Source of the DNA: an uncultured virus (IMG/VR IMGVR_UViG_3300028800_002448)
Taxonomy: Duplodnaviria > Heunggongvirae > Uroviricota > Caudoviricetes
DNA length: 56,710 nucleotides
IMG/VR virus record: IMGVR_UViG_3300028800_002448
Reading direction: 5' to 3' (one strand)
The position numbers were made by a program, and so were the translations under genes. Positions 20,974 through 56,044 of this stretch are shown here, piece by piece; position 1 is the stretch's first letter, and each line of letters starts with the position of its first letter. The notes beneath the pieces are model-generated. The model was not told the DNA's origin. It was given only the letters and a program-made list of their open reading frames with translations, and did not search any database.

Positions 20974-21300
20974 ATGGACATTGCCGCATACAACATACTT
21001 GGACGTCGCTTCAAGCTTCGTGATGGTGGTCAATGGAACAAGGCTTCCACAGGAGTCTCTGATCTGTTCTGCGAGAGAGATGAAGTCGTCACGGTGGAAT
21101 CTGTCTCCTCAGCTAGCTCCTTAGCTAGCAACATAAACAACTGCATCGTCAGGGTCAGCCATGACGGTGGAGGCCATTCACTGGGCTCATACACATACTT
21201 CATGAAGAACTTCGACCTGGTGGTCGATGACATCGTGATCGAGAGCGTCGACCAGAAGCAGATCTCAGACACAGCCTTGGTGCTCCACGATGCCTCCTAG
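20974..21300 (+). CDS. Hypothetical protein with C-terminal ESVDQ tag
   Basis: Ends DDIVIESVDQKQISDTALVLHDAS; visibly lower GC; TTA codon at 21121. Confidence 0.7.
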   Translation: MDIAAYNILGRRFKLRDGGQWNKASTGVSDLFCERDEVVTVESVSSASSLASNINNCIVRVSHDGGGHSLGSYTYFMKNFDLVVDDIVIESVDQKQISDTALVLHDAS

Positions 21301-21601
21301 GCTTGGCACACCCAACGCCGAGAAGATCGTCGAGCTGTCCCTCGCGGGGAAGAGCTACGACCAGATCGCCGTCGAGATCGGCATCTCGGAGAGCTACGTC
21401 CTCGTCATCCGCTGGAAGGCGCGGAAGGCCGGCATCCCGATCCCGGCCGACCCTCGGCGGAACAAGAAGGACGCAGAGCCGACGAAGCGCAGCCTCAAGA
21501 GACGCCTCGGCAGCTCGGACGAGGGCAACGCGAAGTGGAAGGCGCTTTCGGACGAGGACCTAGACGATGCTCTGGCCGAAGAGGTGTTGCGTGATGGTTA
21601 A
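21290..21601 (+). CDS. HTH DNA-binding protein
   Basis: IVELSLAGKSYDQIAVEIGISESYV. Confidence 0.75.
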   Translation: MPPRLGTPNAEKIVELSLAGKSYDQIAVEIGISESYVLVIRWKARKAGIPIPADPRRNKKDAEPTKRSLKRRLGSSDEGNAKWKALSDEDLDDALAEEVLRDG

Positions 21602-21923
21602 CTCGGGACGCATTCCGGTCGGTATGCTCGTGGCCGGGACGGTCCTTCGCGCAAAGATCGACACGAGTTGGGTCGCCTTCAGAATCCTTGATCGCAGGAC
21701 CGAAACTATCTTAATCAAAAGCAACGGACTAGCGGTCATCGAAGAGATCACGCGCGAGCCCGTTACCATCTTGGACTCGATAGAGATCATGGTCAGTCTT
21801 TGTCATCCAGATGGATACAAGTCATCTGGTTCGGTGAGAGACATCTTCAGATGCTTCGAAGTCTTTGACGACGTCGTCTACGAGAGCGTTGATCAGAAGC
21901 AGATCGGGAATCGCGATGACTGA
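21594..21923 (+). CDS. Hypothetical protein with C-terminal ESVDQ tag
   Basis: Ends DDVVYESVDQKQIGNRDD; lower GC; TTA codon at 21711. Confidence 0.7.
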   Translation: MVNSGRIPVGMLVAGTVLRAKIDTSWVAFRILDRRTETILIKSNGLAVIEEITREPVTILDSIEIMVSLCHPDGYKSSGSVRDIFRCFEVFDDVVYESVDQKQIGNRDD

Positions 21924-22233
21924 GATCATGGACAGAGCGGAAGTTCGTGAAGTCGTCTTCGAGATCTGGAAGGCAGAGGCCCAGGAACACGCCGACCGAT
22001 TGTCCGTTGCAGGCGGAGATCTGCTCTGGGTCGATGGAGATCCGTATGACCTCGCGAGCCCGGCAGATTCAGCATTCGCGAATGGCGAAAGCCCCTCGGG
22101 CTTCATCGAGAGCATCTTCGAGGAGGACCTCGGTCGGCAGACGCACGACGAGGAGTTGCTGCGCGAGAGCATCGAGGCGTCAGAGGATGAAGAAGAGGAC
22201 TACGGCGACGTCGAAGAGCTGGAGTTCGAATGA
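21916..22233 (+). CDS. Acidic hypothetical protein
   Basis: MTEIMDRAEVREVV; very acidic C-terminus. Confidence 0.65.
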   Translation: MTEIMDRAEVREVVFEIWKAEAQEHADRLSVAGGDLLWVDGDPYDLASPADSAFANGESPSGFIESIFEEDLGRQTHDEELLRESIEASEDEEEDYGDVEELEFE

Positions 22234-22673
22234 CGCAAGAACTCGTTCGCGACGAGGTTCAAGAAGTCGCTCTCATCCATGACAACCGCAACGCGCGTCT
22301 CGTTGCCGACTATCGACAGAGCGGGTCCATCGTGTCGGCCATGAACTGCTCTCTCGTCAGGACCTCGAAGGGCAGCCACGTTCTCCTGATCCCGGACTAC
22401 ATGGTGTTCGAAGTCATCGGTCGGCATGTCGGACACGTCGAGAAGGATGACCTCGACGTCGAGTGGTTCGCCTCGTGGCAGCGCGGAGTGTTGGACGTCT
22501 TCTACTTCAGCCTGAGACATGACGAGAACATCAACAGCTTCGTCACCGACATCCTCACGCTCAGGTCGACCGACGATCTGGCGGAGGTTTACGACCTCAG
22601 CAACCTCGAAGACTTCAAGACGCTCTCCCTCAAGATCTTCCTCAAGGAAGAGGCGGGGACGCACGGTGAGTAG
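22230..22673 (+). CDS. Hypothetical protein with N-terminal tag
   Basis: MTQELVRDEVQEVALI. Confidence 0.7.
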   Translation: MTQELVRDEVQEVALIHDNRNARLVADYRQSGSIVSAMNCSLVRTSKGSHVLLIPDYMVFEVIGRHVGHVEKDDLDVEWFASWQRGVLDVFYFSLRHDENINSFVTDILTLRSTDDLAEVYDLSNLEDFKTLSLKIFLKEEAGTHGE

Positions 22674-23085
22674 CCTCGCCGTGTCAGAGGTCGAGGACGG
22701 GGGCGTCATCAAGGCAGATCTTGAGGTTCGCCCCAACGACATCCTGATCGCTCGATACAGCTACGATCCGCACGGCATCAAGCTGATGGGTGGCTGTCGG
22801 GGCGGCACGCTTGAAATGCCGGTCGGGACCTGGCTTGAGTTTCCTCAGGGTACTGACCAACCCTTCAGCAGAGACGATCTCGTACGTCTGGATGAGGAGA
22901 AGCGACTCAAGGTCATCGCAGTCGCGAAGAGCTTGGACGGGCAAGATCTCCACATCTACGGCAACTGGATGTTCATCAATCCGCCGACGATGCTCGTCGG
23001 GGTCTGGACGGGCGCCTGGGACGGTGAAAAAAGCTACGTGAAGGCTGCCTTCATGGACCTGACGATCTTCGCGCTCGGCAAGTGA
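22666..23085 (+). CDS. Hypothetical protein with N-terminal EVEDG tag
   Basis: GTG start; SSLAVSEVEDGGVI. Confidence 0.7.
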   Translation: MSSLAVSEVEDGGVIKADLEVRPNDILIARYSYDPHGIKLMGGCRGGTLEMPVGTWLEFPQGTDQPFSRDDLVRLDEEKRLKVIAVAKSLDGQDLHIYGNWMFINPPTMLVGVWTGAWDGEKSYVKAAFMDLTIFALGK

Positions 23086-23384
23086 CGAGAGAACTCGACA
23101 TAGCCGACGTGCAGGAGGTCTCGACGATCTCAGAGCTCGCAGACTGGCCCGAGTGCCTCTGCTGTCGAGATCTCCTCGTGCTATGCGAGGACTCCGACGG
23201 CTCGAACCTGCGAGCGTCGTGTCGGTGCGGGATCTGGACGTCAGTCGCCGACATCGACCACGCCTTGGAAGGCGACGCCGAGTTCGATCTCGGCTTGTTG
23301 CTCGTCATCAGAGTCTTTCATCCATGGGGCATGACCGCGACCGGCAGGAACTTCTTCGAAGCCGTCAAGAGAGTCGTCTTGTGA
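23082..23384 (+). CDS. Zn-ribbon protein with N-terminal tag
   Basis: MTRELDIADVQEVS; CLCC...CRCG. Confidence 0.65.
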   Translation: MTRELDIADVQEVSTISELADWPECLCCRDLLVLCEDSDGSNLRASCRCGIWTSVADIDHALEGDAEFDLGLLLVIRVFHPWGMTATGRNFFEAVKRVVL

Positions 23385-24902: not shown

Positions 24903-26632
24903 ACCCGAAGGCGACAGGTGGACAGGCGACAAGACAGGCGGGGTACATGAAGAGAGAGCCTCTCCATAGCAACCCTGACGTCGCCGAGGTGATCGCGAAC
25001 AACCGCGACGCCTGTCGCCATCCGGACATGTCCACGGTGACCCGCTGGGTAGGCGGAAGCGGGTCGCCGGGCATGATCGGTGGCCAACGACCGATGACCT
25101 ATTGGCACTGCCCTGCCTGCAAGCAGGACGTGCGGCCGTGGCTGCCCGAGGTCGACGACCCTCTCGTGGTGGACTTCCTCAAGAGGATCTCCGAGGGTCC
25201 ACTGGCGCTTCCCAACGGCCCCCTAGTGGACAAGAACGTCTAGGTTGAAGGGAAGGCCCTTGATCCTCTGGGCGGCGTCGTATGCTTCTGAGGCCTTCGT
25301 GGCGGTGAACTGGAGGTCGCGCTTGCGCGTCTTCACCTCGTACGCGCTCCCGAGGTACTTGAGCAGGATGCCGGCGGCCCTGCGAATCTTCGCGTCGACG
25401 CGGCTGTCGACGGCACCCTCATAGGCGACGGAGATCTTCATCGACGGATGCCCCTGCTCTCGCACGGCGGCTCGTGGTCGGGCTCGCGCTCGCAGATGAA
25501 GGTCGAGAAGTGCGTCTTGAGGACCACTCGACCGCACGGGTTTTTCCTGACGGACATCTTCGGGTATACGGTTTCGAAACCATCACCCTCGACGGTGTCA
25601 CTGGTCTGGGTAGCACTACCACCGACGGAAATCTCGTCAAGAAGGTGTTTCGCCGTCTTAGCGTCCTTCATGTAGGTCATGATACGCTGTTTATCGTATG
25701 GCCGGCAACGGTAGCTCCGACGATGACGACCACAGCAATGGGGAGACTGCGTTCGAGGACGAAGACCTCACGCCGGTCATCGTGTCCATTGGGGACTTCA
25801 GGAACCGGGAGATCCTCGCGATCTTGGGCAACTACCTGATGGAGTCCAAGGAGCAAGCGCTGCGCATGGAGGAGCTTTACAGCGACTTGCGCCAGCTGCC
25901 TTATCCCGCCCATCAGACGTGGGCTGTGAAGGTTCTGGACCTCTTCGAGAGTCGTCAAAAGGCCATGTGCGAGAACTTGGAGGACCTGAGGGAGTACGTC
26001 AAGAAAGGGGCCTGAAGCTCATGATGATGTTGGGTAGGTTCGTGAGCCTTCTGACTCGACCGTTCGTGCTGGTTTCGAACTGGCGCTGGGAGAACCAACG
26101 CTGCGGCAACTTCCTCTGCGCCCACCTGCGCAAGGAGCACTTCAGCTACGCCGGCTTCTGCCTCATAGGCCACTCGACGGAGGAGCCCTGTAAATGTCGC
26201 GCCTACGTGTCTCCCAGACACCCTAGGCGCTAGAGCCGGTGTCCGGCGGCCTCCGACACCACTTCTTCTCGGCGTTCTTGTGCCGGGCCAGGTTGAGGTT
26301 GCCGAAGGTGATCCAGGTGCCGACGACCTTGCCGCATCGGGGGCATTCCTTCGACTTGGCGACCCGCGTCGACAGGCCCATGCCGATGGCGACCCGAGTG
26401 ACTCGGTCGGGGACGGCCATGGTCAACCGGCGGCGACGAGCTTGTACTGGCCGGCGTACTTGCCGTAGGCCTCTTCCAAGAAGGCCTGCCGATCGTGAAG
26501 GTCTTCTTCGCCTGGTGGGAACCGCTTCATGATGTCTTTGACGACCCTGTCGGTCAGTTGTTTCTCATCACGGACGACGCCGATCAGGATCTCGCCGTCG
26601 CCGACGTCGCGCATGACCAGGTACATTTTTCG

Positions 26633-26705
26633 TGGAGCTGACAAGCTTCGAACTTGCAACATCCGCCTTGCAAAGGCGGCGCTCTTCCAATTGAGCTACA
26701 GCCCC
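26633..26705 (-). tRNA. tRNA-Ala(TGC)
   Basis: GGGGCTG/CAGCTCC acceptor with G3:U70, D-arm GCTC/GAGC, CCGCC-TT-TGC-AA-GGCGG, TTCGAA T-loop; CCA not encoded. Confidence 0.93.
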
Positions 26706-27386: not shown

Positions 27387-27418
27387 TCGATGGGTTCCTT
27401 TCAAGCGGAGGGAACGCC

Positions 27419-27447
27419 ATCTTCTATCTTGCTTAAGATAAAGTCAA
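27419..27447 (-). promoter_or_regulatory. Sigma70-type promoter with dyad in the spacer
   Basis: TTGACT-17-GAAGAT on minus strand; TATCTT-GCTT-AAGATA at 27425-27440. Confidence 0.72.
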
Positions 27448-28130
27448 GCCTCGCAAGCTTGAACGATCTCTTTGAAGACCTCGTCGCGGGTCTGTCCTGC
27501 GTCGATGATGACCCATTGGCGACTTTCCGGAGGGCGCATCCCGATCTCGACTCGCCACAGGTCGCGGTAGATGGCCCTGATCCGTTCCTGAGCCTGTCGG
27601 TCGACCTCGTAGCGGTCCCGAAAGGTTGGACGTCGTCGGGCAGACTCCTCGGCGGAAACGTCGAGGAGGATGTTGATGTCCCCCTGAGGGAGGAGCTGAT
27701 GGATCTCGACCAGCCAGTCCTTGTCGAGCCCGTCGCTTGAGCCGAAGGCGTAGGCCGACTGCCACCAGCGGTCGCAGACGACGTCGTAGCCGTCGGCGAG
27801 CGTCTTCTTGATCTCGACGGCTGCGTGGTACTTGTCGGCGACCATCATGCATTGGAAGGCGAGGGCGTCTTCGGGGGCCTTCTCACCGCCAAGGGTCGCT
27901 GCGGCGAGGTCTGAAAATTGAACATCGACACGAATTTCTCGCTTGAGGTGTCGCAGGATCGCCTTGCCGACGGGAGTCTCATAGCGGGGGAAGGCGATGC
28001 GCTTCGCCTTGCGACCGGGCATCTTGTTGATCTCGTCGACGAGACGCGTGCTCATCTCGAACTTGCCGACGGCATCTGCGCCCTCGAACACGATCAGCCT
28101 TGGGGTTGCGATCATCCGGCGAAGGTACAA
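27444..28130 (-). CDS. tmk: Thymidylate kinase
   Basis: IVFEGADAVGK P-loop, FPRYETPVG, VVCDRW, PQGDINILLD; start may be a few codons internal. Confidence 0.9.
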   Translation of the reverse strand: MYLRRMIATPRLIVFEGADAVGKFEMSTRLVDEINKMPGRKAKRIAFPRYETPVGKAILRHLKREIRVDVQFSDLAAATLGGEKAPEDALAFQCMMVADKYHAAVEIKKTLADGYDVVCDRWWQSAYAFGSSDGLDKDWLVEIHQLLPQGDINILLDVSAEESARRRPTFRDRYEVDRQAQERIRAIYRDLWRVEIGMRPPESRQWVIIDAGQTRDEVFKEIVQACEA

Positions 28131-28182
28131 CTCCTGCCGAACGCGTTCAAGCCCAGGGCGTCCTGAACTGGGGAAGCAGGAG

Positions 28183-28395
28183 CTAGAAGAACTTCATCGA
28201 CGGATCTTGGACCTGCATCGCGACGGGTCGCTTTTGACTCGCTTTGCCGACCTTCGGGACGCCGGCCTTCTTCATGGCCCCTTCGAGCGTCTTGGCGGCG
28301 CCGAGGACCTTCGACATCTGCGGATCCAGGATGACCCAGGTGCCGGGCAAGTGTTGCGTGAGGAGGATTTCGAGAACGGACTTGCGCATGATCAC
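28183..28395 (-). CDS. Small hypothetical protein
   Basis: 70 aa; GTWVIL...VLGAAKTLEGA. Confidence 0.55.
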   Translation of the reverse strand: MIMRKSVLEILLTQHLPGTWVILDPQMSKVLGAAKTLEGAMKKAGVPKVGKASQKRPVAMQVQDPSMKFF

Positions 28396-29123
28396 CGTAA
28401 GAACGTGGTCGCGAGTCGACCGTGGATGAAGGAGTTCTTGTTCTTCTTGGAGGCCGGGAGCAGCTCGTCGACGGCCCTCATCACGCCCGGATACTCAAGC
28501 GAGTAGTCGTGGCCGGCGAGCGTCCCGTCCTTCTTGAGCTTCGGGAGGAAGGCGAGGATCGCATCGCGCGTCCCTTCGTAGGAGTGATCGCTGTCGAGGA
28601 AGACGAAGTCGAGCGAGCCCGCCTCGTACGTCTTGACGGCCTCCAGCTGATCCATCACGCGAAGCCTGATGAGTTCGTCGACACCGAAGACCTCGGTGAA
28701 GTGCTTGAACGTCTCGGGCTTCGCGGAGAAGGACGCATCATCGAACGTGTCGATCACGTCGAAGGAGATCTTCTTGCCCGAGGCCCTGATGAGCATGGCC
28801 ATCTGGCACGCCGAGCGGCCACAGTAGCCCCCGCACTCGACGAACCTCGCGTCGTTGCCGTCTCGGCCGTAGACGCGCACGGCCTGCTCGTAGATGTTCC
28901 CGAAGTCGAACCAGCCCGGGATGGCGTCGAGCGTGAGCGGGCCGACCTCTTCCCAACGATCGAGGACGGCGCTCACGCTGCCTTCCTGCGCTATCAGCGG
29001 CGGAGCAAAGAGGCGTCGCTCGTTTCGAAACTCGTCTCGCCTATCCTTGAGACGGAAGAGCTTGCCGTGGAGATCAGGGCGAGAGAGGTAGGCTGATTCA
29101 GGTGTCGGCTGCGGTGTGATCAT
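28392..29123 (-). CDS. Class I SAM-dependent methyltransferase (Methyltransf_24-like)
   Basis: VECGGYCGRS, DFVFLDSDHSYEG, GTLAGHDY. Confidence 0.9.
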   Translation of the reverse strand: MITPQPTPESAYLSRPDLHGKLFRLKDRRDEFRNERRLFAPPLIAQEGSVSAVLDRWEEVGPLTLDAIPGWFDFGNIYEQAVRVYGRDGNDARFVECGGYCGRSACQMAMLIRASGKKISFDVIDTFDDASFSAKPETFKHFTEVFGVDELIRLRVMDQLEAVKTYEAGSLDFVFLDSDHSYEGTRDAILAFLPKLKKDGTLAGHDYSLEYPGVMRAVDELLPASKKNKNSFIHGRLATTFLR

Positions 29124-30076
29124 CGTGCGAGTACGGTGAGACGGTTGTTGGTCACCTTGATGACCTGTCCATTCCTGAACCTGAGGCGGATGCGAACCTC
29201 GTCAGTATATTCACGAGGAAGCAGGCCGCGCTGCCTGGGGGCTCTTTCGAACATCCAAGACAGGCGCATCATGTCGTAGTCGTCGCCTGGATACGAGAGC
29301 GTCTGGCGTCCCCAGCCTGCTGCGACTGCGCCGGGCAACACGATCGAGCGGTCGCCCGCATGATAGGCGACTGAAGGATAGATGACGCCGTACTCGGAGC
29401 AAGGAGCGGGAGGCGTCGCAGTGACGACGGCGAGGTAGACGTCGCTCGCGTAGGGCGATTCGCTCGGCCTGCCGACCTTCTGGAGGAACTCCTTCCATGA
29501 TGGCGGCTCTGGTTGTGCGATCAGATCGAGAGAGCGTAGCGGGACGGCGAGGGCTTGGTTGCCCCAGTGACCGCCTTCTCCCGGTCTCGGACCCGCGAAG
29601 TCGTAGCCGACCATCGTCGTGATCCCTTGATGGAGCGCGATCTGCTTGATGTCGCAGAAGGTGTAGAAGGCGAGGTCGTCGTGCATGTTCTCGGCCATGC
29701 CGACCATGAACGGGACGGCGTTCCTGGCCCATTTGACGTCGTCTTCGGTGTAGTAGAGCATCTCGACGCGGTCGACGGATGCGCGACGCATGACTTCGAG
29801 GAGTGCAGCCTTCGTGCCGAGGAGACCTGCGTAAAGGGTAGCTTTGGGCCCTTGGATGCCAGCGTCCCACTCGCTCTGCACGGTCTCGTGCAGAGGACCT
29901 TGGGGAAGACCCTCGACGCGCCAACCGGGGAACTCGTAGCCGGTCGGATCTCCGTCGACGTATATGACGCGGTCACCGTCGAAGTCGACGGCGCCCGCCC
30001 GATTGAGCGACGTGATCGTGTCGTCGATGTAGATGCGTCGACGCGAGCACGTGAGAACGGAGAGCCTCCGCTTCAT
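29120..30076 (-). CDS. Putative GT-A fold glycosyltransferase
   Basis: N-terminal strand LSVLTC, hydrophobic strand then EDD (YYTEDDV), YPSVAYHAG; lies between two methyltransferases. Confidence 0.6.
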   Translation of the reverse strand: MKRRLSVLTCSRRRIYIDDTITSLNRAGAVDFDGDRVIYVDGDPTGYEFPGWRVEGLPQGPLHETVQSEWDAGIQGPKATLYAGLLGTKAALLEVMRRASVDRVEMLYYTEDDVKWARNAVPFMVGMAENMHDDLAFYTFCDIKQIALHQGITTMVGYDFAGPRPGEGGHWGNQALAVPLRSLDLIAQPEPPSWKEFLQKVGRPSESPYASDVYLAVVTATPPAPCSEYGVIYPSVAYHAGDRSIVLPGAVAAGWGRQTLSYPGDDYDMMRLSWMFERAPRQRGLLPREYTDEVRIRLRFRNGQVIKVTNNRLTVLAR

Positions 30077-30082
30077 CGTGCC

Positions 30083-30610
30083 CTAGGGAACGATGTAGAG
30101 GAACGAGCAGCCGTCGATCGTGAAGCCGGGGATGGTGTCCCGCACGGCGCGGATGACGTCGGGGAAGTTGCCGCGGACGGCGCAGTCGTGGCCACCGAGG
30201 ACGCCGCCCGACTTGATCTTCGGCAGGAAGGCCAAGATGGCGTTCTTCGTGCCGTCGTAGGTGTGGTCAGAGTCGAGGAAGACGAAGTCGAGCGACCTGT
30301 CTTCGTATGTCGCGGCTTGGGCGATCTGGTCCGCGACGACGAGGTTCACCTTGCCGGCGGCGGGCGAGTTGCTGATGAACGTGTTCGTCTGGTCGGGCGT
30401 CACGTTGAACGTGAAGTTGTCGATCGAGTCGAAGGAGATGTTCTTCCCCGACGCGGCGATCTGGGTGCCCATGTAGACCGTCGAGCGGCCGAGGTAGGCG
30501 CCACACTCGACGAACTTCGCTCCGTCCGCGGCCCGAGCGATGGCTCCGTCGTAGATGTCCTCGAAGTCGAACCATCCAGGGATGTTCTGCCAAGTGAAGG
30601 TGGTGCTCAT
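30083..30610 (-). CDS. Class I SAM-dependent methyltransferase, paralog of 28392-29123
   Basis: IPGWFDF..IY, VECGAYLGRS, DFVFLDSDHTY, GVLGGHD. Confidence 0.9.
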   Translation of the reverse strand: MSTTFTWQNIPGWFDFEDIYDGAIARAADGAKFVECGAYLGRSTVYMGTQIAASGKNISFDSIDNFTFNVTPDQTNTFISNSPAAGKVNLVVADQIAQAATYEDRSLDFVFLDSDHTYDGTKNAILAFLPKIKSGGVLGGHDCAVRGNFPDVIRAVRDTIPGFTIDGCSFLYIVP

Positions 30611-30620
30611 GGTGTGATCC

Positions 30621-31835
30621 TTATCCCTTGATGGTGAAGAGCGCTCCGTAGTAGCTGAGAGGGACCGAGGTCGCAGGGAACTCGGCGCCGGTCGCGCCCG
30701 CGAACGAGGTCAGGATGACGTACTTCTTGCCGCCCGGGTTGGCGACGGTCGTCTTCGCGTCGACGCCAGCGAAGTTCGAGGGTGCCGGCGGGAACTTGCT
30801 GAACGTGATCGTGATGCTGTCGATCGTCACGGGAACGGAGGTGACCGTGCCGATCGCGATCTTCATGCTGACAGTGCCGCCGGGGTTGACGAGAGAGCCG
30901 GACGTGTCGAGCGTGACGTGGTTGTCGCTCGCTGGCCCCGGGTCGAACACCGACTGTCCGAGCGTGCCCGTGATCGTCGTCGGCGGCTGGATCGTTCCGA
31001 CGGATTGAACGGTGCCTCCGAAGAAGAGCTGCACGTACTGGTTGTTCGCAGCCCATGCCGGATCGGAGACGAAGTCGATCGAGCTTGAGATCTGCAAGTT
31101 CTCGGAGACGGTGAAGACCGACAGGTTGACGTTGGCGACGACGACGATCTTCTTCGCCGCGGGGCCGGAGAAGGTGAACGGACCGGGGAAGGTGACGGAG
31201 ACCGTCGGAGAGACGATGGTGCCTCCCGTGGGCCACTCGATGAGGCCGAGGAGCGTGCCGCTGCCCGTGTTGTCGCCCTCCGTGTCGGACGCCCAGACGG
31301 AGATGCCTCCGGGCAGCGGAGCTGCGCCGATCTCACCGACGGCCGAGAGGTAAGTGTTCAGCGTCGCGCCGAACTGGCTGAAGTCGACGTACTGCTCGTT
31401 GTCCATCTGGAGGGAGAAGCCGTCGCTGTTGACGACCGGCGTGACGCCGAACTGGTTCAGGGTGAACTGGGTCTGGCCGCCAGCGCCCGCGGCGCAGTTC
31501 TGCTCGCCAGCGACGGATATCTGGACGTCGCTCGTGATGACTCCGCTGACGAAGATGCGGAGGTACCTGACGACGGAGCCCACGACGGTCTGAGGCGACT
31601 GAAGGCCCGTGTGGATGCCCATGTCGCCGCCGTCGAACTGGCAGAGCGCGCTCCAGTCGGAGCCGTCCGTGGAGCCCTGGACGGAGATCACGTCTGCGAA
31701 CACGCCCGTGCAGAGGAAGGTCAGGCTGCTGTCGAGCCCTGACGACGGGACGGCCGAGAAGAGATCTATCGATGACTGGGGGCCTGATGCTCCCGGTGCG
31801 ACTACTGGAAAGCTGACGAAGTTGTTCGCGCCCAA
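30621..31835 (-). CDS. Beta-rich Ser/Thr/Gly/Val protein, probable virion structural protein
   Basis: TTG start with GGAGG SD; low charge and alternating hydrophobic strands; VQGSTDGSDW motif. Confidence 0.65.
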   Translation of the reverse strand: MGANNFVSFPVVAPGASGPQSSIDLFSAVPSSGLDSSLTFLCTGVFADVISVQGSTDGSDWSALCQFDGGDMGIHTGLQSPQTVVGSVVRYLRIFVSGVITSDVQISVAGEQNCAAGAGGQTQFTLNQFGVTPVVNSDGFSLQMDNEQYVDFSQFGATLNTYLSAVGEIGAAPLPGGISVWASDTEGDNTGSGTLLGLIEWPTGGTIVSPTVSVTFPGPFTFSGPAAKKIVVVANVNLSVFTVSENLQISSSIDFVSDPAWAANNQYVQLFFGGTVQSVGTIQPPTTITGTLGQSVFDPGPASDNHVTLDTSGSLVNPGGTVSMKIAIGTVTSVPVTIDSITITFSKFPPAPSNFAGVDAKTTVANPGGKKYVILTSFAGATGAEFPATSVPLSYYGALFTIKG

Positions 31836-32972
31836 GGTCTTCTCCTCCAGGGCCGAGACGAAGCTCGGTCCTTGAATGGCCTTGGGGGCTCAGCGTCTAA
31901 GCTATCACACAGCTCTGCGGCGAATCAATCGACAGGCCAGGATGCGACCTCCTCGGGGGAGGCGACGACGTTAGCGTTGAAGCCATAGGGGTGGTTGGCG
32001 ACGTCGAGGACACCCGAGTAGGTCAGCGCAGACTCGCAGACTAGGCCTTTGCGGCGGACCAGGCAGAGTCCCGATCCAGCTTGGAGCTGATGCTGGCATC
32101 TGTCTGCGATGGGGCATTCGGGAGGGACGTCGTCCGGAAGGTGCTCAGCACCTGTCTCGACCCGACAGCGCTTCGACGGAGCATCCCAGCCGGTCGCGCA
32201 GCGGTCGCACGTGGTCACCAGCATCGCGATGCCGTCGTAGAGCTGGGGACAGAGGACAGGGAGCTTCTTCACTCCGGTCGTGGTCCTTTTTGCGGTCCTT
32301 TTTCGATGATCGCGTCGATCGCACCTCGAAGGTCGTGCCACTCGTGGTTGGTGCAGATGTAGTGACCCGCGACGATCTGAGGTTTGACCGATTCCCCGTT
32401 ACACGACGGGCAGTGGGTCATCGTCGCGTAGATGCTGAGTCGCTCCTCATCCTTCGCAGCCTTGATGACTGCTTGGAGCTTCTCTTCGTCATGGAAGGTC
32501 CCTCTCGACGTGAACGTGCTGATGGCCTTCCTGAGAGCGCTCGTCATATGAGGTCTTCTTCCTCTTTCGGGTGTGGACGGAACTCGACGATCCCGTAGAT
32601 GGCAGTTTGAACGGCGGGCGGAGCATGGAGCGATGCTCTGACGACCTTGCCGTGGTTGGTCTGGATGAAGTCGAAGAAGTCGGTGGCGGTCTCGTGGTGG
32701 CCGCTGATGATGAAGAAGCGCGGCTCAGGTCGTCTTGACATCGACGGGTTGCCCTGTTCGGATCACGTGGAGAGTGAGGTTCCTGACTGTCGTGGTCGGG
32801 CCCGGAGGCCACGCGGAGAAGATCCTCATCTCGACTCGATAGGCCTTGATGCCATCTCCGAGATCGCTCTTCCAGTGGAAGATGTCTCCCTTCACAGGGA
32901 GGTACACGCCGAAGTCGATGGTGCCGATGAGCTTCGGCGCCCACATCTCGGTGACGTCGTAGACCTCGGCGT

Positions 32973-33515
32973 TCATTTCTTTTCGATGCTGCTCATCGCC
33001 CCGGCCGGCTTCGAGTCGTCCGTCTCGCAGCAGGTGACGTTCGCGCCGCCGGCCGCGAGGAACTTGATCATCTCCTCGGACATGCCGTACCTGCCGCCGT
33101 AGAACTCTCCGTAGACGATCTTCGTGATGCCGGCGTTGAGGATGAGCTTCGAGCAGTCGTAGCAGGGAGAGGCGGTCGTGTAGATCGTCGAGCCGGTGAT
33201 GGACACGCCGTTCTCAGCGGCCTGAGCGATGGCGTTGGCCTCGGCGTGGATGGTCCTCACGCAGCTCTGTCGACCGCCGAGATCCCTCATCTCGCAACCG
33301 ACCTGCGTGCAGTGGGGCATCCCTCGTGGAGAGCCGTTGTAGCCCGTCGAGAGGATGCGCTTGTCCCTCACGATGACGGCGCCGACGTGTTTGCGCGGGC
33401 AGGTCGCCCTCGTCGCGACGTCGGTCGCGATCTTCATGAAGTATTGGTCCCACGAGGGACGATCGTCTCTCAGCATGTCGTTCATGAAGGCTCCTGTTTG
33501 ATCGGCATCGGCCAC
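32973..33515 (-). CDS. dCMP deaminase
   Basis: RPSWDQYFM, TGYNG, HAEAN, SPCYDC. Confidence 0.95.
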   Translation of the reverse strand: MADADQTGAFMNDMLRDDRPSWDQYFMKIATDVATRATCPRKHVGAVIVRDKRILSTGYNGSPRGMPHCTQVGCEMRDLGGRQSCVRTIHAEANAIAQAAENGVSITGSTIYTTASPCYDCSKLILNAGITKIVYGEFYGGRYGMSEEMIKFLAAGGANVTCCETDDSKPAGAMSSIEKK

Positions 33516-43404: not shown

Positions 43405-43652
43405 GTTGATCCCTCGACAGGTGTCAGCCGGGGTTGGTCGACCTCTTCGATCGTGATGGAGGTGTTGCTGTGCGAGGGGCAGTAGTCTGCGAAGACCTTC
43501 GAGAGGACGTCGGAGACGGTCGTCCAGCCTGCGGCACGCGCGTCTGCTCTGATGTCTGTTGCGATCATTCTGGCCGAGAACCTATTTCTACAACGTAGGC
43601 CATCACCACCCGTCAGATCGCAGCGCAAGCTGAGCCATCTATCGTCGTGCAT
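43401..43652 (-). CDS. Small Zn-binding protein with C-terminal EEVDQ tag
   Basis: CD...C...ARAAGW...DYCPSH then ITIEEVDQPRL. Confidence 0.7.
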   Translation of the reverse strand: MHDDRWLSLRCDLTGGDGLRCRNRFSARMIATDIRADARAAGWTTVSDVLSKVFADYCPSHSNTSITIEEVDQPRLTPVEGST

Positions 43653-43657: not shown

Positions 43658-43939
43658 TTACTGTCCCGAGGTGATCTGAGGTTGGTCGACGCTCTCATAG
43701 GAGACATCGACGTCGGCGCATGTCAGAGGATTGTGTCGAGGACAGAGGTCGGAGAGGACGTCACCGTTCGGAGCGCGCTCGCAGGCCCAACCGCGACGCC
43801 TCGCTTGGCGTCTCACCTTCGAGGGAGTGTACTCAACGGTGATCTCCCATTCGGCCTTCCTGCCATCGTAGTTGTTAAGACAACCCTCGCGGTCGCACCA
43901 GACACGAAAGTTTCCGTAGCGACCGAGGCTAGCGATCAT
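43658..43939 (-). CDS. Paralogous Zn-binding protein with ESVDQ tag
   Basis: CDREGC...ARRRGW...DLCPRH then VSYESVDQPQI. Confidence 0.7.
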   Translation of the reverse strand: MIASLGRYGNFRVWCDREGCLNNYDGRKAEWEITVEYTPSKVRRQARRRGWACERAPNGDVLSDLCPRHNPLTCADVDVSYESVDQPQITSGQ

Positions 43940-45240: not shown

Positions 45241-45729
45241 TCAGAGCGACGACGGCGCTCGATAGGGGATGAGCAAGACGCTGATGCCGGCCTCCTTGAT
45301 CTTGAGGCCCATGCTGCGTGCGCCGGGACGGTTGTACGAGTGGATGACGACCCGATCGGGGTACTTGTCTTTGGGGAGCTTCTCGGCGATGTAGTCGGCG
45401 ACGACCTGACCCGTCTCCTCGCGAGGCGTCTGGCCCATCGTCGCGTACTCGTCGAGGTCGTGGTCGAGGTAGACGTAGTCGTAGGCGGGGTTCTTCTCCA
45501 GCGCTTCGATCGCCTGACGGGCCGTGTAGACGTGGTCGACGAGGTCTCCGATCGTCATCTGCCGGAAGCCTCGGTGACGGTTCTCGTCGTCGTCGAGGAA
45601 GAGGATCCTGTCGAGGTCGAGGGCTCCGATGTAGCCGGACTTCGCCTCGACACGACCGAGGCGTTCTCCGCCGAGGGCGGCGGCGATCTTGTCCTTCTTG
45701 TCTTCGTCGATCTCGTTCTCGCTCGACAT
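45241..45729 (-). CDS. Cyclic-phosphate-processing receiver-domain protein
   Basis: ILFLDDD..R, YLDHDL, TG, VIHSYN..G. Confidence 0.8.
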   Translation of the reverse strand: MSSENEIDEDKKDKIAAALGGERLGRVEAKSGYIGALDLDRILFLDDDENRHRGFRQMTIGDLVDHVYTARQAIEALEKNPAYDYVYLDHDLDEYATMGQTPREETGQVVADYIAEKLPKDKYPDRVVIHSYNRPGARSMGLKIKEAGISVLLIPYRAPSSL

Positions 45730-48723: not shown

Positions 48724-48854
48724 GGGACACGCTCAGGAGGTTCCTCGCCTGATCGCAGTAGGTGTTCAAAAGGCCCGCGAGGATCAACAAGACCCCGATG
48801 ACGATCGCGCCACGCCTGAGCGCCTTCATCTCTCGCGTGGTCATGTTGGTCGTG

Positions 48855-48939
48855 TCCTGCCGGAGGGAGTCGAACCCTCACACCCACCAGGGGCTGCCGA
48901 TTTTAAGTCAGCCGCGTCTACCAATTCCACCACGGCAGG
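48855..48939 (-). tRNA. tRNA-Leu(TAA)
   Basis: CCTGCCG/CGGCAGG-A, GCTGA-CT-TAA-AA-TCGGC, long variable arm, TTCGACT. Confidence 0.92.
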
Positions 48940-48943
48940 GTTG

Positions 48944-49030
48944 TGGGAACGGGGGGAGTCGAACCCCCATGGGCACTAAGGCCCCACAAGGTTTGAGCTT
49001 GTGTCGTCTACCAAATTCCGTCACGTTCCC
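48944..49030 (-). tRNA. tRNA-Leu(CAA)
   Basis: GGGAACG/CGTTCCC-A, ACAAG-CT-CAA-AC-CTTGT, long variable arm. Confidence 0.92.
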
Positions 49031-51411: not shown

Positions 51412-51827
51412 CCGGGCACGTAGATGTTGAGCGTCATGGCGACGTGTTCGTAGTGTGGAGTGCCACCATGACGCCTGAAGACTCCGACCTTCTGCACACG
51501 ATGATGATCGTCGACATAGGTCGGACGCTGGACCTCGTCAATACCCCAAAAACCCTGATCCCAATCGCCAACCTCAGGCTGATAGGACACCTTGATCTGA
51601 TCGAGCCTGAGACCGTAACTCCGCGTCTCGACGATGCCCCCGGCGACCCTGTGAAACTCCAAAGTGAAGTCGAGGGCTTCATGAGGATTGATGACGACGT
51701 GCTCCTTCTCGACGCCCAGGAAGAATGAGTGGGCAAGCACCCATCCTTTGGGAAGGCGGATCTCCAGAACCTCCTCGACATCGTGCTCGACGAGAGCGTT
51801 CACCGCGACCTCGGAACTTTCGTCCAC
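51408..51827 (-). CDS. Hypothetical protein with N-terminal tag
   Basis: NALVEHDVEEVLEI. Confidence 0.65.
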   Translation of the reverse strand: MDESSEVAVNALVEHDVEEVLEIRLPKGWVLAHSFFLGVEKEHVVINPHEALDFTLEFHRVAGGIVETRSYGLRLDQIKVSYQPEVGDWDQGFWGIDEVQRPTYVDDHHRVQKVGVFRRHGGTPHYEHVAMTLNIYVPG

Positions 51828-52447
51828 GGAGGGTTCGGCGGACGGATGCCCTCAGCAGCCAACGCCTCTCCGACCGTCTGCAAGTCCTTCCACACGTAGC
51901 GTTTGCCTGAAGGCTGCCGGAGCAGGAAGGAAGGGTGGAACGTGGGCATGACGCGGAAGGCGTGTCTGAAGATCTCGATGACCTCCCTATCGTGCCACTT
52001 GCCGCGCATGCGTGTGATCCCGGGTGACTCGTCATCCAAATCCAAGATCGTCCTCATCGCGAGGTTCCCCAACGCGACGACGACGACAGGCCTCACGGCG
52101 ACGAACTGCTTGCGGAGGAACGGGTAGCACTCCGCAACCTCCTGTGAGGTGCCAGGACGGTTCTCGCCATCCTCGTTCGTCGGGCGACATTTGACGATGT
52201 TCGCAACGTAGACGGTCTCTCGCGTCCACCCCATCGCCTCTATCATCTTCGTGAGGAGAGCACCGGCCACACCGACGAAAGGCAGACCCTGCTCATCTTC
52301 GTCCGCGCCCGGTCCTTCACCGACGAACATGAGCGCAGCATCAGGGTCGCCAGAGCCGAAGACGATGTTCTTGCGCGTCTCACAGAGGCCGCAGCGACGG
52401 CAGTCCCCCAGGTCCTCGCGGACGAGCTTGAGTCTCTTGATGCTCAC
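51800..52447 (-). CDS. Uracil-DNA glycosylase, family 4 (Fe-S)
   Basis: CRRCGLC, GEGPG..ED..G.PFVG, NIVKCRP, TFHPS. Confidence 0.95.
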   Translation of the reverse strand: MSIKRLKLVREDLGDCRRCGLCETRKNIVFGSGDPDAALMFVGEGPGADEDEQGLPFVGVAGALLTKMIEAMGWTRETVYVANIVKCRPTNEDGENRPGTSQEVAECYPFLRKQFVAVRPVVVVALGNLAMRTILDLDDESPGITRMRGKWHDREVIEIFRHAFRVMPTFHPSFLLRQPSGKRYVWKDLQTVGEALAAEGIRPPNPPWTKVPRSR

Positions 52448-52454
52448 GTCACCC

Positions 52455-52787
52455 TCACGTCGGCGGAATGTACTCGACTTCGACGACCTCGACGGGATCG
52501 AACGGAAACGTCATCCGGACGCGAACGTCTCCGAACATCACCTCGTCGCCTGACTTCACGACGGCGTTGGTCACCTTCAGACCCTCGTAGCGAGTGCCGC
52601 CGGCAGAGCCAAGGTCGATCACCTTGACCACGTCACCATCTTGTTCGACGACTGCATGCAGGCGAGAGACGCTCGGATGATCGATGTGAAGCTGACAGCT
52701 CGGCAGCCTGCCGACCTTCATGGCCTCGTTGGAGAAGACACCTGCTTCGACGAACTGATCCATGAAGATCTCGAACTTGATGATCAT
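52455..52787 (-). CDS. FHA-domain protein
   Basis: VGR...C.L....SVSRLHA...DLGSAGGT...GDEVMFG. Confidence 0.9.
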   Translation of the reverse strand: MIIKFEIFMDQFVEAGVFSNEAMKVGRLPSCQLHIDHPSVSRLHAVVEQDGDVVKVIDLGSAGGTRYEGLKVTNAVVKSGDEVMFGDVRVRMTFPFDPVEVVEVEYIPPT

Positions 52788-54071
52788 CGCCGCCTGACCT
52801 TCGGCGCCAAGCCCGGCGGCGCGGGCTTCCTGTTCCCGCAGTTGCTGCACCGAAGCTCGCCGCGCATGTGGCAGAGGTAGAGCTTCCACAGGCTCTCGAC
52901 GGCCACGAACAGCCCGAGGATGGTCAACGTGACGATGAGGACGACGACGAGGATGGGCAGCTCGACGTCCATGTGCCTGACGACGGGCTCCATCAAGCGA
53001 CTTTGATCCGGACCAGTGTCGCGCTATCCAACACTTTGATCACCTTGACCCAGGGAAGGATCCTCATCTCCTGCTCTTCGCCAGACTCGTCCTTGACGAT
53101 GATGTGCGCGCCCATCTTGCAAGCGTCGTCCTTGTTGGTGACGAGGTAGACGTGGGTGTTCTCCCGCTCCTCCTGGTTGCATGCGTCGCCCGTCAAACGG
53201 AAGGACATCCCGATCTCCAGCTCTTCCGGCTTCATGAGGTCAGCCATCAGAAGAAGCTCCCGAAGAGGCTGCCGAGAGGGTTGAGCGGGTCGCGCTGCTT
53301 GAAGGTGTCTTCGAGCACCATGATGCCGACGGTGAGACAGATGTTGTCGGCCGGCTCCAAGCCGCCCTGCTTCACGTTCTTCTCCGAGAGGAGGTCGACA
53401 GACAAGGCGATCCTGTGCTTGCGTATCTTCATCAAGACCTTGTTGTATGCATGCGCGGCCTCGTTCCAGACGCGCCACGCGTCCTTGTCGCTCATCCCCG
53501 GGTCTGCGCCAGGGTCTGGTGGCATCGGACCGGGATCAGGATGCTTTTCAGCGAAGGTCATCACGCACGCTCCAGTTGGGCGGGGTTGTAGCCGTAGCGG
53601 AGACGAGAGGGGTACCAGAGGACGTCGACCTCGGGCGCCCCAGGATCGTCGAGGAACACGCGTCCGATCACGCGACCGTAAGTGTGTCGACCTCCGAACT
53701 CCATGACGTGTCGAGGACTGGCGGCGGCCCAGGGGGACTGCTTGGCAGCCTTCGTGAGCCGGACGCGGACGTGGGGCGTGCGCGAGAACGGCATGATGTC
53801 GTCACGCACCTCGAACGGAGGCGTCAGGAGTGGCTCGGAGAGAGGAGTCTTGCGGGCATGCAGCTTCAAGCGTGTTCTCCTTTGGCCAAGATCTTGTCGA
53901 TGTGGGTGATGCCGTAGCGCGAGCGCTGCTTGATCCACTCAGGTTCGTGAGGGTCTTCTTCCGACAAGATCTCACGGGCACGCAGGAGCGCTTCTTTCGA
54001 GGACTCTTTACAGGAAACTTCGAACTCCTCGATACCCCAACCAAGAACGGCAACGAGACCCGCACCTGTGC

Positions 54072-54818
54072 TCATCGATTGAATTGATACTCAAGGACCG
54101 ACCGAGCCATGTCGAGCGAACGCATCGCCTTGCCGCCGACAACGTACTCGATGTCCATGCCAACACGAAGCACTTGAGGATGCTGGAAGTCTGCGTTCCA
54201 AGGCTGCGCCGGCATGATGACGTAGCCCCGCGGTCTCCGAGACAGCCACGCAGCGATGTACGACGGATAGTCGTCAGCAAGCACGCGACCGTAGAAGCGT
54301 TGCTTCTTCTCGACGAGGTTCACCGTGAACTTGGGCGAAATCGGGAGGTTCTTGTGGGACCACTCGACTTTCTCCGACCACGCCGGGAAGTTCGTCCTAG
54401 GAGCCTTCGTGAGGACGTCGATGTGAAAGCCGATCTCGATCGCCATTTCGAGGAGGGCGAAACCGACCGGGAGACGCGCGAGATCTCGCCAGAAGCCAGG
54501 TTGTCTCTTGATGAGACGTCGTCGCTCCTTGATGTGGTCGGGCTCGGTCTCTTGCTCGCGCGGGTAGTAGGTGTTGTTCGCGATCTCCTCGGGCGTCGCG
54601 ATCTTCCTCATGCCCGCCTCCATCGAGCCGTCGAAGTCAGCCATCGTCCCGTCGAGATCGAAGAGCATGACTTTTTCTTCTTCTTCGATCGACCCCCTCA
54701 GGTTCGGAATCGCTTCAGGCGCGAAGACCCATCCGGCGGGAGTACGCGTTCCGTCGCTCCATTCGGCGGCCTCTTTGGCCAGAGTACCGTGCGGTGTCCT
54801 GACGACGGGTATGCTCAT
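54072..54818 (-). CDS. 5'(3')-deoxyribonucleotidase (HAD, NT5C-like)
   Basis: FDLDGTMADF, GFWRDL, EKVEW, LADD, PWN. Confidence 0.85.
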   Translation of the reverse strand: MSIPVVRTPHGTLAKEAAEWSDGTRTPAGWVFAPEAIPNLRGSIEEEEKVMLFDLDGTMADFDGSMEAGMRKIATPEEIANNTYYPREQETEPDHIKERRRLIKRQPGFWRDLARLPVGFALLEMAIEIGFHIDVLTKAPRTNFPAWSEKVEWSHKNLPISPKFTVNLVEKKQRFYGRVLADDYPSYIAAWLSRRPRGYVIMPAQPWNADFQHPQVLRVGMDIEYVVGGKAMRSLDMARSVLEYQFNR

Positions 54819-54893
54819 GGGCTGCATCTTAGACAAGATTGAAAAGACGAACAAGCTTGAAATCTTAAAACGAGGCGCTCATCATCGCCGCCG
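54819..54893. promoter_or_regulatory. Divergent promoter pair with dyad variant
   Basis: Minus: TTGTTC-17-TAAGAT, 7 nt to ATG 54818; plus: TTGAAA-17-CATCAT, 8 nt to ATG 54894; ATCTT-AGAC-AAGAT at 54826-54839. Confidence 0.7.
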
Positions 54894-55118
54894 ATGAAGC
54901 TGACACACTCTCAGCTCGACGAGCTGATGCGTCTCACGCACAGCCATCAGATCGCCAGCACACCACGAGCACGCGTGCAGAACAAGCTCGGCAAGATGGC
55001 TCTCGCCAAGCTCGTCGAGAGCCAGCATGGACCGCTACCGGACTACTGGGAGATCACGGAGCTTGGACGAGCGACGCTTGTGCCGTACCAGGAGTCTGAA
55101 GTCTACGAGGGAGAATGA
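54894..55118 (+). CDS. Small winged-helix-like protein
   Basis: MKLTHSQLDEL...WEITELGR. Confidence 0.65.
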   Translation: MKLTHSQLDELMRLTHSHQIASTPRARVQNKLGKMALAKLVESQHGPLPDYWEITELGRATLVPYQESEVYEGE

Positions 55119-55409
55119 AATGAAGCTGAACACGACCGGCATGATGGGCATGCACGAGATGGAGATGGCGGTCCTCTTCTTGTTCGAGAAGGCTCAAAAG
55201 CAATCGATGAGCTTCAGCGAAGTGCGCTTCTACAGCAAGTCGGACTACCCCTTGCTCAACGAGAGCCAGGCCACGGGCATGTGGAACCTCGCAACCCACG
55301 GCTGGCTCTGGCCTGACACGTCGAACGGCTCGTCACACTGCTACTTCAAGCCCAGCACGGCGCTGATCGCACGAGTCAGTGAACATACGATGGGTGCGAA
55401 ACAGGGCTG

Positions 55410-55757
55410 ATGAAGCCACGTCGGCAGTGCTCGAAGTGTCCCTGGAAGAAGGGTGTCGACCCGAACGACATCCCGAACGGCTACTGCTCCGTCAGGCACG
55501 AGAACCTGGACAAGACGATCGCAGAGCCGGGAGTGTTGCCCGTTCGCGGAACGCCTCTGCGGCTCATGGCCTGCCACGAGACGATGCCTGGCAAGGAGCT
55601 GGCCTGCGTCGGCTGGTTGGAGCATCAGCTCGGGCCCGGGAACAACCTCGGACTCAGGATGGCCGTCATCACGGGGAAGATCGACGGCAACATCAAGACG
55701 GTCGGCCCCCAGCACGAGCGGTTCGAAGACACGCTGCCCAAGGAAGCCAGGCGATGA
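55410..55757 (+). CDS. Cys/His-rich protein, DUF6283-like
   Basis: CSKCPW...MACH...CVGWL. Confidence 0.6.
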   Translation: MKPRRQCSKCPWKKGVDPNDIPNGYCSVRHENLDKTIAEPGVLPVRGTPLRLMACHETMPGKELACVGWLEHQLGPGNNLGLRMAVITGKIDGNIKTVGPQHERFEDTLPKEARR

Positions 55758-56044
55758 GCAACAACTACATGATCCATCGCAACTCCGGTAACGCAGTGTT
55801 CGTCAAGGAAACGGGCTTCTTCATCAGCCAGGGCGGCCTCGGGGCAGAATGGGGACGTCAATGGCGACCGATCGTCGCCGACTCGATCGAGGACGCACGC
55901 TCGAAGGGCGAGAGGCTCCTTCCAAAGTATCGACAAGTTGTCCGGATGTCGAACGGCATCCCTCACGTCGCCTGGGAGCTTCCCGGCGACGACGAGAGCG
56001 CCATCTTCTTCGAGAGCGTCGACCAACGTCAGATCGAAGGATAG
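55754..56044 (+). CDS. Hypothetical protein with C-terminal ESVDQ tag
   Basis: ATG 55754 coupled; ends AIFFESVDQRQIEG. Confidence 0.7.
   Translation: MSNNYMIHRNSGNAVFVKETGFFISQGGLGAEWGRQWRPIVADSIEDARSKGERLLPKYRQVVRMSNGIPHVAWELPGDDESAIFFESVDQRQIEG

Follow-up and report, generated by a model that had tools for sequence, protein, structure and literature searches.

Why should several unrelated small proteins of one phage end in the same short peptide? The question is raised by a stretch of 56,710 nucleotides (nt) from an uncultured virus of the Caudoviricetes (IMG/VR record IMGVR_UViG_3300028800_002448), referred to below in its whole length as the window. An original prediction, made from the sequence alone, had reported a C-terminal peptide of the form ESVDQxQ[IL] on six small proteins dispersed over both strands and 35 kb. 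All six peptides are present where it had placed them; a diverged seventh, on the gene at 35144-35701, had been overlooked. The peptide, with the consensus [IV]-x-[IVYF]-E-[SE]-V-[DE]-Q-x-[QR]-[IL], is a real, clade-specific and portable C-terminal tag, and we consider it probable, at about 0.7, that it is read by one conserved partner as a docking motif. The tagged genes of the window are as follows.

20974-21300, plus strand: gene A1, 108 amino acids (aa), with an SH3/Tudor-like beta body; 12-residue tag DIVIESVDQKQI at 21229-21264, 11 residues from the stop
21594-21923, plus strand: gene A2, 109 aa, of the A1 paralog family; tag DVVYESVDQKQI at 21870-21905, 5 residues from the stop
35144-35701, minus strand: gene H, 185 aa; diverged tag ITRVESVEQPQL at 35162-35197, 5 residues from the stop
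38274-38687, minus strand: gene C, 135-137 aa, Cys/His-rich; tag LVDIESVDQPQL at 38313-38348, 12 residues from the stop
43401-43652, minus strand: gene B2, 83 aa, Cys-rich and zinc-ribbon-like by sequence; tag SITIEEVDQPRL at 43425-43460, 7 residues from the stop
43658-43939, minus strand: gene B1, 93 aa, a paralog of B2; tag DVSYESVDQPQI at 43673-43708, 4 residues from the stop
55754-56044, plus strand: gene D, 96 aa; tag AIFFESVDQRQI at 56000-56035, 2 residues from the stop

A six-frame search of the window, which covers 57 kb of a contig of about 261 kb, with the pattern E[SE]VDQ.[QR][IL] returned exactly six matches, against 0.001 predicted from amino-acid composition. All six end 2, 4, 5, 7, 11 or 12 residues from a stop, as had been predicted, and all are in open reading frames (ORFs) supported by third-position G+C (GC3). 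The back-translated pattern GARWSNGTNGAYCARNNNCAR matched five times in the window and in none of 100 dinucleotide-preserving shuffles. With a 12-position matrix built from 17 tags, the six strict tags scored 29.8-48.9 bits, compared with a maximum of 15.4 bits in 50 control shuffles. The next-best match, ITRVESVEQPQL (VESVEQPQL), scored 11.5 bits, which by score alone is inside the shuffle range; it is counted as a seventh, diverged tag because it lies five residues from a stop and its DNA is near-identical to that of the other copies. It is followed by PEKSS and the stop, ends a well-supported gene of 185 aa (gene H), and its DNA GAGAGCGTCGAGCAA (GAG AGC GTC GAG CAA CCG CAG CTC) departs from the other copies only in the Asp codon, through a third-position change. 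The residue preceding the tag Glu is hydrophobic or aromatic in every case. By rough ORF picking, about 7 of roughly 100 window genes carry the tag.

The tag was also found beyond the window. A whole-protein search with gene D gave two homologs of 72-75% identity, both ending ...ESVDQRQIE[RA], in which the 20 residues ahead of the tag had diverged and altered in length while the tag was kept (2/2). A profile of the six tails, run against longer proteins, retrieved 16 proteins at E<=10 from 1493 candidates, and each of the 16 was tagged 2-12 residues from its end. When a profile of 16 tails was run exhaustively with HMMER against 1.84 billion cluster representatives, 11 matches at E<=0.001 resulted, comprising nine small tagged proteins (83-135 aa; P0020 being new) and two repeat-protein false positives. 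In total there are 18 carriers, seven from the window (two of them also as near-identical variants) and 11 from relatives. The C-terminal enrichment, which the original prediction had named as the property to check, is seen in 6/6 window matches and in 18/18 carriers, always 2-12 residues from the end.

In the collections searched, the tag occurs in this clade of uncultured jumbo phages only. Proteins of the window itself are on record under a high-GC contig of 260,842 bases, and the longest contigs with tagged relatives measure 162 kb, 71 kb and 69 kb. With the window as positive control, the tag pattern was absent from six complete phage genomes totalling about 1.27 Mb (uncultured phage LR745208.1, of 485 kb, and phages AR9, RHph_X66, Gilgamesh, KellEzio and CcrBL10). 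Among viral contigs, a search for related loci recovered only two distant, tag-less relatives of family B, and a scan for the motif DNA gave one chance match, 52-55 residues from the stop. Neither metagenome nor genome contigs yielded a relative in the search for related loci. In metagenome contigs, scanning for the motif DNA gave at least 116 stretches; among the matches listed only L040 (1.3 kb, identical to the B pair of the window) was related, the rest being chance matches or unrelated families in which ESVDQxQ belongs to a fold. The DNA of relatives that was compared is the 1.3-kb fragment L040. Two unrelated families in metagenome contigs (L010, L011, L013, L019, L034, L041 and others) end …GESVDQRQMIF[VI] and …GESVDQNQILLILS. 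These were rejected as relatives of the tag, as Gly precedes the Glu, there is no hydrophobic pair and the string looks internal to a fold. A homolog of phrog_5706 in Caulobacter phage CcrBL10 (gp233; L122, 295-786) has a short C-terminal extension, …PDQVPRVGVVEPA, which MAFFT pairs with linker and tag of the window (EPEITRVESVEQ) at 5/12 identical positions; this may be chance or a remote cousin, and the strict tag DNA pattern does not occur in the CcrBL10 genome.

The bodies that carry the tag are not of one kind. In the window they fall into five families (A twice, B twice, C, D and H), of which A1/A2 and B1/B2 are adjacent paralog pairs, B1 and B2 matching each other by BLASTP at E 2e-4 without the tag; the earlier grouping into a Zn-finger pair, another Cys/His protein and beta-rich proteins of lower G+C holds. 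After removal of the tag and the four preceding residues, BLASTP sorted 17 database carriers into seven families, and profile-profile comparison (hhalign) between these gave a probability of <=1.2% in 21/21 cross-family comparisons. Residues 1-140 of gene H match phrog_5706 (E 3e-30), and none of nine other tagged proteins scanned against PHROGs matches that family. At least eight unrelated body families thus bear the tag. In Streptomyces phage Gilgamesh, gp28 resembles the body of P0016 (E 4e-11) and has no tag, its last residues being ...SVAALSAGV. Arthrobacter phage KellEzio gp73 aligns with gene H as far as ...CMEGCGR and then stops, while gene H runs on for 27 residues, passing from its Cys/Gly stretch into an acidic, proline-containing linker and then the tag. 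Tag-less homologs therefore exist for families G and H, in which the tag is an appended extension. Portability of the tag, as opposed to membership of one fold, is in this way borne out, and the suggestion that all bodies might prove to be a single homologous family is not.

That the bodies are one diverged family, with the motif as the last conserved piece of its fold, could draw on the adjacent paralog pairs and on a shared serine codon (below) that points to one origin for the tag DNA. It is nevertheless the least credible of the explanations considered, given the 21/21 cross-family comparisons and the tag-less homologs of families G and H; moreover, the linker varies and has many insertions and deletions, and the tag lies outside the fold in the model of family A.

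Constraint was found to act on the peptide, as had been proposed from synonymous codon changes. At the invariant E, V, D and Q of the six strict copies, 0/8 first and second codon positions vary and 4/4 third positions do, and at the hydrophobic positions ahead of the Glu the character is kept while the codons differ. Across nine ortholog or paralog pairs, which are not independent of each other, identity is 88/108 (81%) in the tag, 28/108 (26%) in the preceding 12-residue linker and 348/688 (51%) in the body. Together these comparisons of aligned copies show purifying selection on the peptide. Within families, the tail behind the tag is identical at 41/76 positions (54%). Such tails, for example at 21265-21297 (plus strand) and 38277-38312 (minus strand), are kept within a family and differ between families (SDTALVLHDAS versus SETAMVFHDAS; TAHAFATATEKS versus TAHASATATEKS). 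The synonymous variation is present as described, with the qualification that Ser is not free: it is encoded by AGC in 6/6 Ser-bearing copies, compared with 26% use of this codon in the window. No path of synonymous single steps leads from AGC to the TCN serine codons. Because Ser is constantly AGC, a single ancestral origin of the tag cassette is indicated, and the codon pattern suggests that the tag-coding DNA spread by copying or recombination rather than by convergence.

Structure prediction is consistent with an exposed tag. The AlphaFold2 model of family A (7 sequences) has a mean predicted local distance difference test (pLDDT) score of 72.8 and a small beta-rich body, whose blocks average 66-90; residues 87-91 and 94-108 are below 50 and without secondary structure, so that tag and tail are predicted to lie outside the folded body. 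Foldseek with the family A body gave no match at E<=0.001, small SH3/Tudor/KOW-like barrels appearing at E 0.04-0.3, and VIA-align gave a best Z of 6.7, in the middling range, to barrels of the same kind; the modelled likeness is a lead on fold, not on function. A helical tag is argued against by a proline at the variable position in half of the tags. The tag profile (16 tails) had no match at E<=10 among 177,635 distinct PDB sequences.

The carriers have the traits of accessory, fast-evolving genes. Their median GC3 is 0.68, compared with 0.80 in 96 other ORFs (one-sided Mann-Whitney p 0.005), and between the same phages their bodies are 27-51% identical while an AAA+ ATPase encoded in the window is 72-76% identical. 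Gene H, which bears the diverged tag, is the exception in GC3 (0.86). Fifteen of the 15 carriers examined have an isoelectric point (pI) of 4.4-6.6, a net charge of 0 to -13 and no hydrophobic segment, and several carriers are Cys- and His-rich. Nine of ten tagged proteins have no Pfam match at E<=1 and the tenth, P0016, has sub-threshold matches only; PHROGs gave a weak match to phrog_4826 for family D, phrog_5706 for family H, and nothing else on tagged proteins.

From this anatomy the tag is probably a portable docking motif of the short linear kind, set apart from the body by a linker of variable sequence and lying on a C-terminal tail that is disordered. The exposed acidic peptide would insert into one conserved groove of a single partner, and a set of fast-evolving proteins would thereby reach the same machine or place. 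The uncultured jumbo phages of this clade, with genomes of about 260 kb, have probably copied the tag onto small accessory proteins, acidic and soluble, of at least eight unrelated kinds. Several points weigh against the docking interpretation. Docking is read from the anatomy of the tag, and most relatives were retrieved through the tag itself, so that tag-less orthologs inside the clade would escape. Disorder rests on one usable model, the AlphaFold2 model of family C (4 sequences) being unusable at a mean pLDDT of 35.6. In addition, the conservation of post-tag tails within families could reflect a longer functional unit, or overlap with signals for the start or ribosome site of the next gene.

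Of the other explanations, the one taken most seriously is that the tag is an address label. Cargo bearing it would be loaded into the capsid and co-injected, or would enter some other compartment built by the phage, and a scaffold, shell or import receptor would be the reader; this special case of docking follows the logic of the T4 capsid targeting sequence or of encapsulin cargo-loading peptides. The contrast between bodies (27-51%) and AAA+ ATPase (72-76%) would be in keeping with such cargo, as would the proportion of tagged genes, which suits a sorting code, and the cargo peptides of encapsulins are likewise specific and carried by unrelated cargo, as the source describes them (PMC11866011). 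Nevertheless, no head, tail or scaffold family was found among the window proteins (96 searched against Pfam; 79+24 against PHROGs), 200 kb of the genome lying outside the window. All 15 carriers examined are acidic (pI <=6.6), while the internal proteins of T4 are basic, and a cytoplasmic role in DNA metabolism is suggested by family H, whose tag-less homologs adjoin a RecB-like exonuclease and a dCMP deaminase in KellEzio and whose window member lies near the dCMP deaminase. A general import signal is also at odds with the DNA-acting enzymes of the window (UDG, exonuclease, methyltransferases), which have no tag. We regard the address label as doubtful. A recognition site for an enzyme, either a phage or host protease that cleaves the tag or a modification such as Ser phosphorylation, is unlikely. 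The conserved polar E-S-V-D-Q is a pattern of the kind that active sites read, always preceded by a hydrophobic or aromatic residue; family B2 and its ortholog have Glu in place of Ser, which is a phosphomimetic change; and a weakly papain-like protein is encoded at 11475-12311 (Peptidase_C1, 20.7 bits, at the cut-off). Yet the tails behind the tag are conserved like the bodies (54% versus 51%), which would be odd for a discarded peptide, position P3 relative to the Glu is not the Leu/Ile of the T4 protease site, and no kinase was found among the Pfam-scanned window proteins.

The position of the tags in front of other genes admits two further explanations. SecM, MifM and similar arrest peptides regulate a downstream gene, and all seven tagged genes of the window are followed by a same-strand gene that starts 0-12 nt downstream or overlaps them (the stop of gene C overlaps the ATG of its successor), with 36-57 nt from tag to downstream start; the tag could thus stall the ribosome, or couple translation, and so regulate the abutting gene. 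This is very unlikely, since the spacing from tag to stop varies from 2 to 12 codons, tight packing is general in the window and the downstream genes share no function (an HTH-like protein, an acidic protein, DUF2786, SET, another tagged gene, DUF6745 and phrog_27761). The presence of the tag on body families that exist elsewhere without it is also better suited to a function in the protein. Less probable again is a DNA or RNA element within the coding sequence, such as a promoter, operator, recombination site or hairpin. Its DNA core, GAGAGCGTCGACCA, is fairly constant, includes the palindrome GTCGAC and always has AGC for Ser; a site 36-57 nt before the next start would suit a promoter, and the shared 24 nt could act as microhomology in the shuffling that spreads the tag. 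Against this stand the third-position-only variation of the invariant residues (0/8 versus 4/4), the shared frame, coding strand and ORF-end position of 7/7 copies, and upstream hydrophobic positions conserved in property and not in DNA. Moreover, folding the seven copies as RNA gives a negligible consensus structure (-1.46 kcal/mol, 4 pairs, 0 compensatory), and the stretch after the tag is not conserved between families. Enzyme site, arrest peptide, nucleic-acid element and single family, even taken jointly, account for a small minority of the probability.

By means of shared terminal peptides, cells and viruses sort or dock many proteins through one receptor. Textbook phage cases are few, namely the T4 capsid targeting sequence (CTS) and clamp-binding tails. 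The CTS is N-terminal and is removed by the prohead protease, whose site is Leu/Ile-x-Glu. On T4-type internal proteins, as described in the source, one such short conserved peptide is found on diverse, fast-evolving small phage proteins and is portable to foreign proteins (PMC3012670). The tag resembles it as a short, portable peptide shared by diverse bodies (eight here), and differs in being C-terminal in 18/18 carriers, in having no sequence likeness, in its acidic carriers and in the lack of head genes in the window; nor does it have the prohead-protease site, as P3 to the invariant Glu is V, D, T, S, F, E or A across tags. The analogy with the CTS drawn in the original prediction therefore stands in its logic and fails in terminus and cleavage site. 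The consensus of encapsulin loading peptides is rich in Gly and small hydrophobic residues. These cargo-loading peptides are described as C-terminal, borne on a flexible linker by unrelated cargo, and read by an HK97-fold shell protein (PMC8346489, PMC11866011). The tag is similarly C-terminal behind a flexible linker (26% identity versus 81% in the tag), with most of the region at pLDDT <50, and on unrelated bodies, whereas it is acidic and polar and by eye does not resemble that consensus, and no shell gene was seen next to the carriers; in the Pfam and PHROGs scans, which covered the 57 kb of the window out of about 261 kb, no capsid or encapsulin family was found.

Other parallels concern hubs that read short tails. 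Through tags for ClpX and the tail of the SspB adaptor, short peptides borne on flexible tails, unrelated proteins are directed to one AAA+ machine, as outlined in the source (PMC9963277). The phage clade likewise encodes a conserved Cdc48-class AAA+ protein with a large N-terminal domain, whereas the tag has no sequence likeness to these peptides and no peptidase partner was found among the window proteins scanned. Tags of the ssrA type act at the extreme C-terminus, whereas here 2-12 family-specific residues follow the tag. Clamp-binding or PIP patterns are of the type Q-x-x-[ILM]-x-x-[FY]-[FY] or QL[SD]LF. The sliding clamp is described as a hub that reads a short linear motif, often terminal, on many unrelated proteins (PMC6881253). 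Several carriers resemble nucleic-acid accessories (the zinc-ribbon-like pair, the SH3/Tudor/KOW-like barrel and the family beside a RecB-like exonuclease), whereas the 16 tails have no aromatic pair, have S, G, T or E after Q-x-Q-[IL], and may have as few as two residues left; no clamp gene was found among the window proteins scanned with Pfam and PHROGs. The (I)EEVD tail of Hsp70/Hsp90 is a free C-terminus read by TPR co-chaperones. The likeness is that family B2 and its ortholog have I-E-E-V-D, others I/Y/F-E-S-V-D, on an acidic, disordered tail. A TPR reader was rejected and the resemblance attributed to chance, as Q-x-[QR]-[IL] and 2-12 residues always follow and no TPR family was found among the Pfam-scanned window proteins. 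Import into the phage nucleus of chimalliviruses (PicA/Imp1) also sorts a subset of jumbo-phage proteins to one place and, by the account in PMC12908238, relies on surface residues and not on a terminal signal; here the shared feature is a terminal linear peptide.

Three further candidates were discarded: the YxxxD/E signal of type VII secretion, as Tyr occurs in a minority of tags only, a 2A-like skipping peptide, as there is no NPGP, and an FHA-domain reader, as the tag has no conserved Thr. In the literature, supplementary files aside, the string ESVDQ was met in unrelated contexts only, and searches on shared C-terminal motifs in jumbo phages and on phage short linear motifs found nothing relevant. 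The tag thus fails the defining features (terminus, consensus, terminal position) of each system compared where these are testable. It marks about 7% of the window genes, mostly encoding proteins of unknown function, and its reader, once found, would give a set of dark-matter proteins a common destination or fate and would make the tag a portable handle for delivering foreign proteins to the same destination. Its presence on fast-evolving bodies may also flag the host-interaction arsenal of the phage.

Which partner would read such a docking motif? A phage-encoded cytoplasmic machine comes nearest, at not quite even odds. Within this group the best single guess, itself tentative, would be a Cdc48-class AAA+ ATPase that uses the tag as a tether or degron; the window encodes one, a candidate from its context.

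16840-18552, plus strand: Cdc48/p97-class AAA+ ATPase, 570 aa, candidate reader

The long ORF at 16213-18552 (plus strand) starts 209 codons early, as six orthologs (564-679 aa) all begin at Met210. The protein has an N-terminal domain of 330 residues, orthologs are encoded on the 162-kb and 69-kb contigs that also bear tagged proteins, and the first tagged pair lies 2.4 kb downstream of the gene in the same strand block. In Bacillus phage AR9 an early promoter is annotated just upstream of the homolog, g083. Weighing against the ATPase as reader, its nearest database homologs are in AR9 and Rhizobium phage RHph_X66, genomes without the tag; co-occurrence on the same contigs is expected of any core gene; and the C-terminus of the ATPase itself has no tag. 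A predicted complex of the ATPase (570 aa, 7-row alignment) with a 40-residue tail (16-row alignment) scored 0.00 in a run without controls, and speaks neither for nor against binding. An ORF upstream of the ATPase (about 228 aa from MNAEM) has one database homolog, in a 485-kb uncultured phage that has neither tag nor ATPase.

A replication or transcription hub such as the clamp is the other machine considered, and a rather doubtful one. Pointers to it are the zinc-ribbon-like and KOW/Tudor-like bodies and the neighbourhood of family H in KellEzio, where the homolog adjoins the RecB-like exonuclease and dCMP deaminase; gene H also lies near a dCMP deaminase in the window. Similarly doubtful would be a sorting receptor for loading of a capsid or compartment, and a host hub would be an unlikely reader. 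In a broader and somewhat speculative scheme, which we hold possible at well below even odds, the tag would be a clade-specific sorting code, read by a phage-encoded receptor that takes small, acidic and fast-evolving effectors, in a repertoire that changes, to a single destination. The capsid (for co-injection), a replication compartment and the phage's own Cdc48-like unfoldase are possible destinations, and new effectors would be recruited by recombining the 24-nt tag cassette onto 3' ends.

The window in which the tagged genes lie has a G+C content of 61.6%, with ORFs tightly packed across it and the coding frame marked by third-codon G+C. Within the genome of an uncultured jumbo phage, it is taken to represent a region of early or metabolic genes. 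Pfam and PHROGs name a minority of its proteins only, including a GH25 endolysin, thymidylate kinase, dCMP deaminase, an NT5C-type nucleotidase, a UDG-superfamily protein, NUDIX, an RNase T-like exonuclease, several methyltransferases and HNH endonucleases, in addition to SET, FHA, RRM and cREC_REC domain proteins and the AAA+ ATPase. Scattered homologs of window proteins occur in phages of Bacillus, Rhizobium, Streptomyces, Arthrobacter and Caulobacter. Other features of the window are listed here.

26632-26705, 48854-48939 and 48943-49030, minus strand: tRNA genes Ala(TGC), Leu(TAA) and Leu(CAA)
27444-33515, 38691-39122, 51800-52447 and 54072-54854, minus strand: nucleotide-metabolism gene cluster
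8019-8429, 42985-43404, 45241-45729 and 52455-52889, minus strand: eukaryote-like or regulatory domains RRM_1 (E 9e-16), SET (1e-8), cREC_REC (2e-13) and FHA (2e-14)
11475-12311, minus strand: 278-aa protein with a Peptidase_C1 (papain family) match exactly at the gathering score, 20.7 bits
5032-7911, minus strand: 959-aa ORF without a Pfam or PHROG match

The nucleotide-metabolism cluster comprises thymidylate kinase, two Methyltransf_24 proteins, dCMP deaminase, NUDIX, the UDG-superfamily protein and the NT5C-type deoxynucleotidase, and may constitute a pathway for modified bases or for rewiring of the nucleotide pool. The SET gene stands immediately after both tagged B genes. The 278-aa Peptidase_C1-like protein, a possible protease, is encoded upstream of the GH25 endolysin region, and the 959-aa ORF terminates in a hydrophobic stretch followed by KGKKKAA, which looks like a C-terminal membrane anchor.

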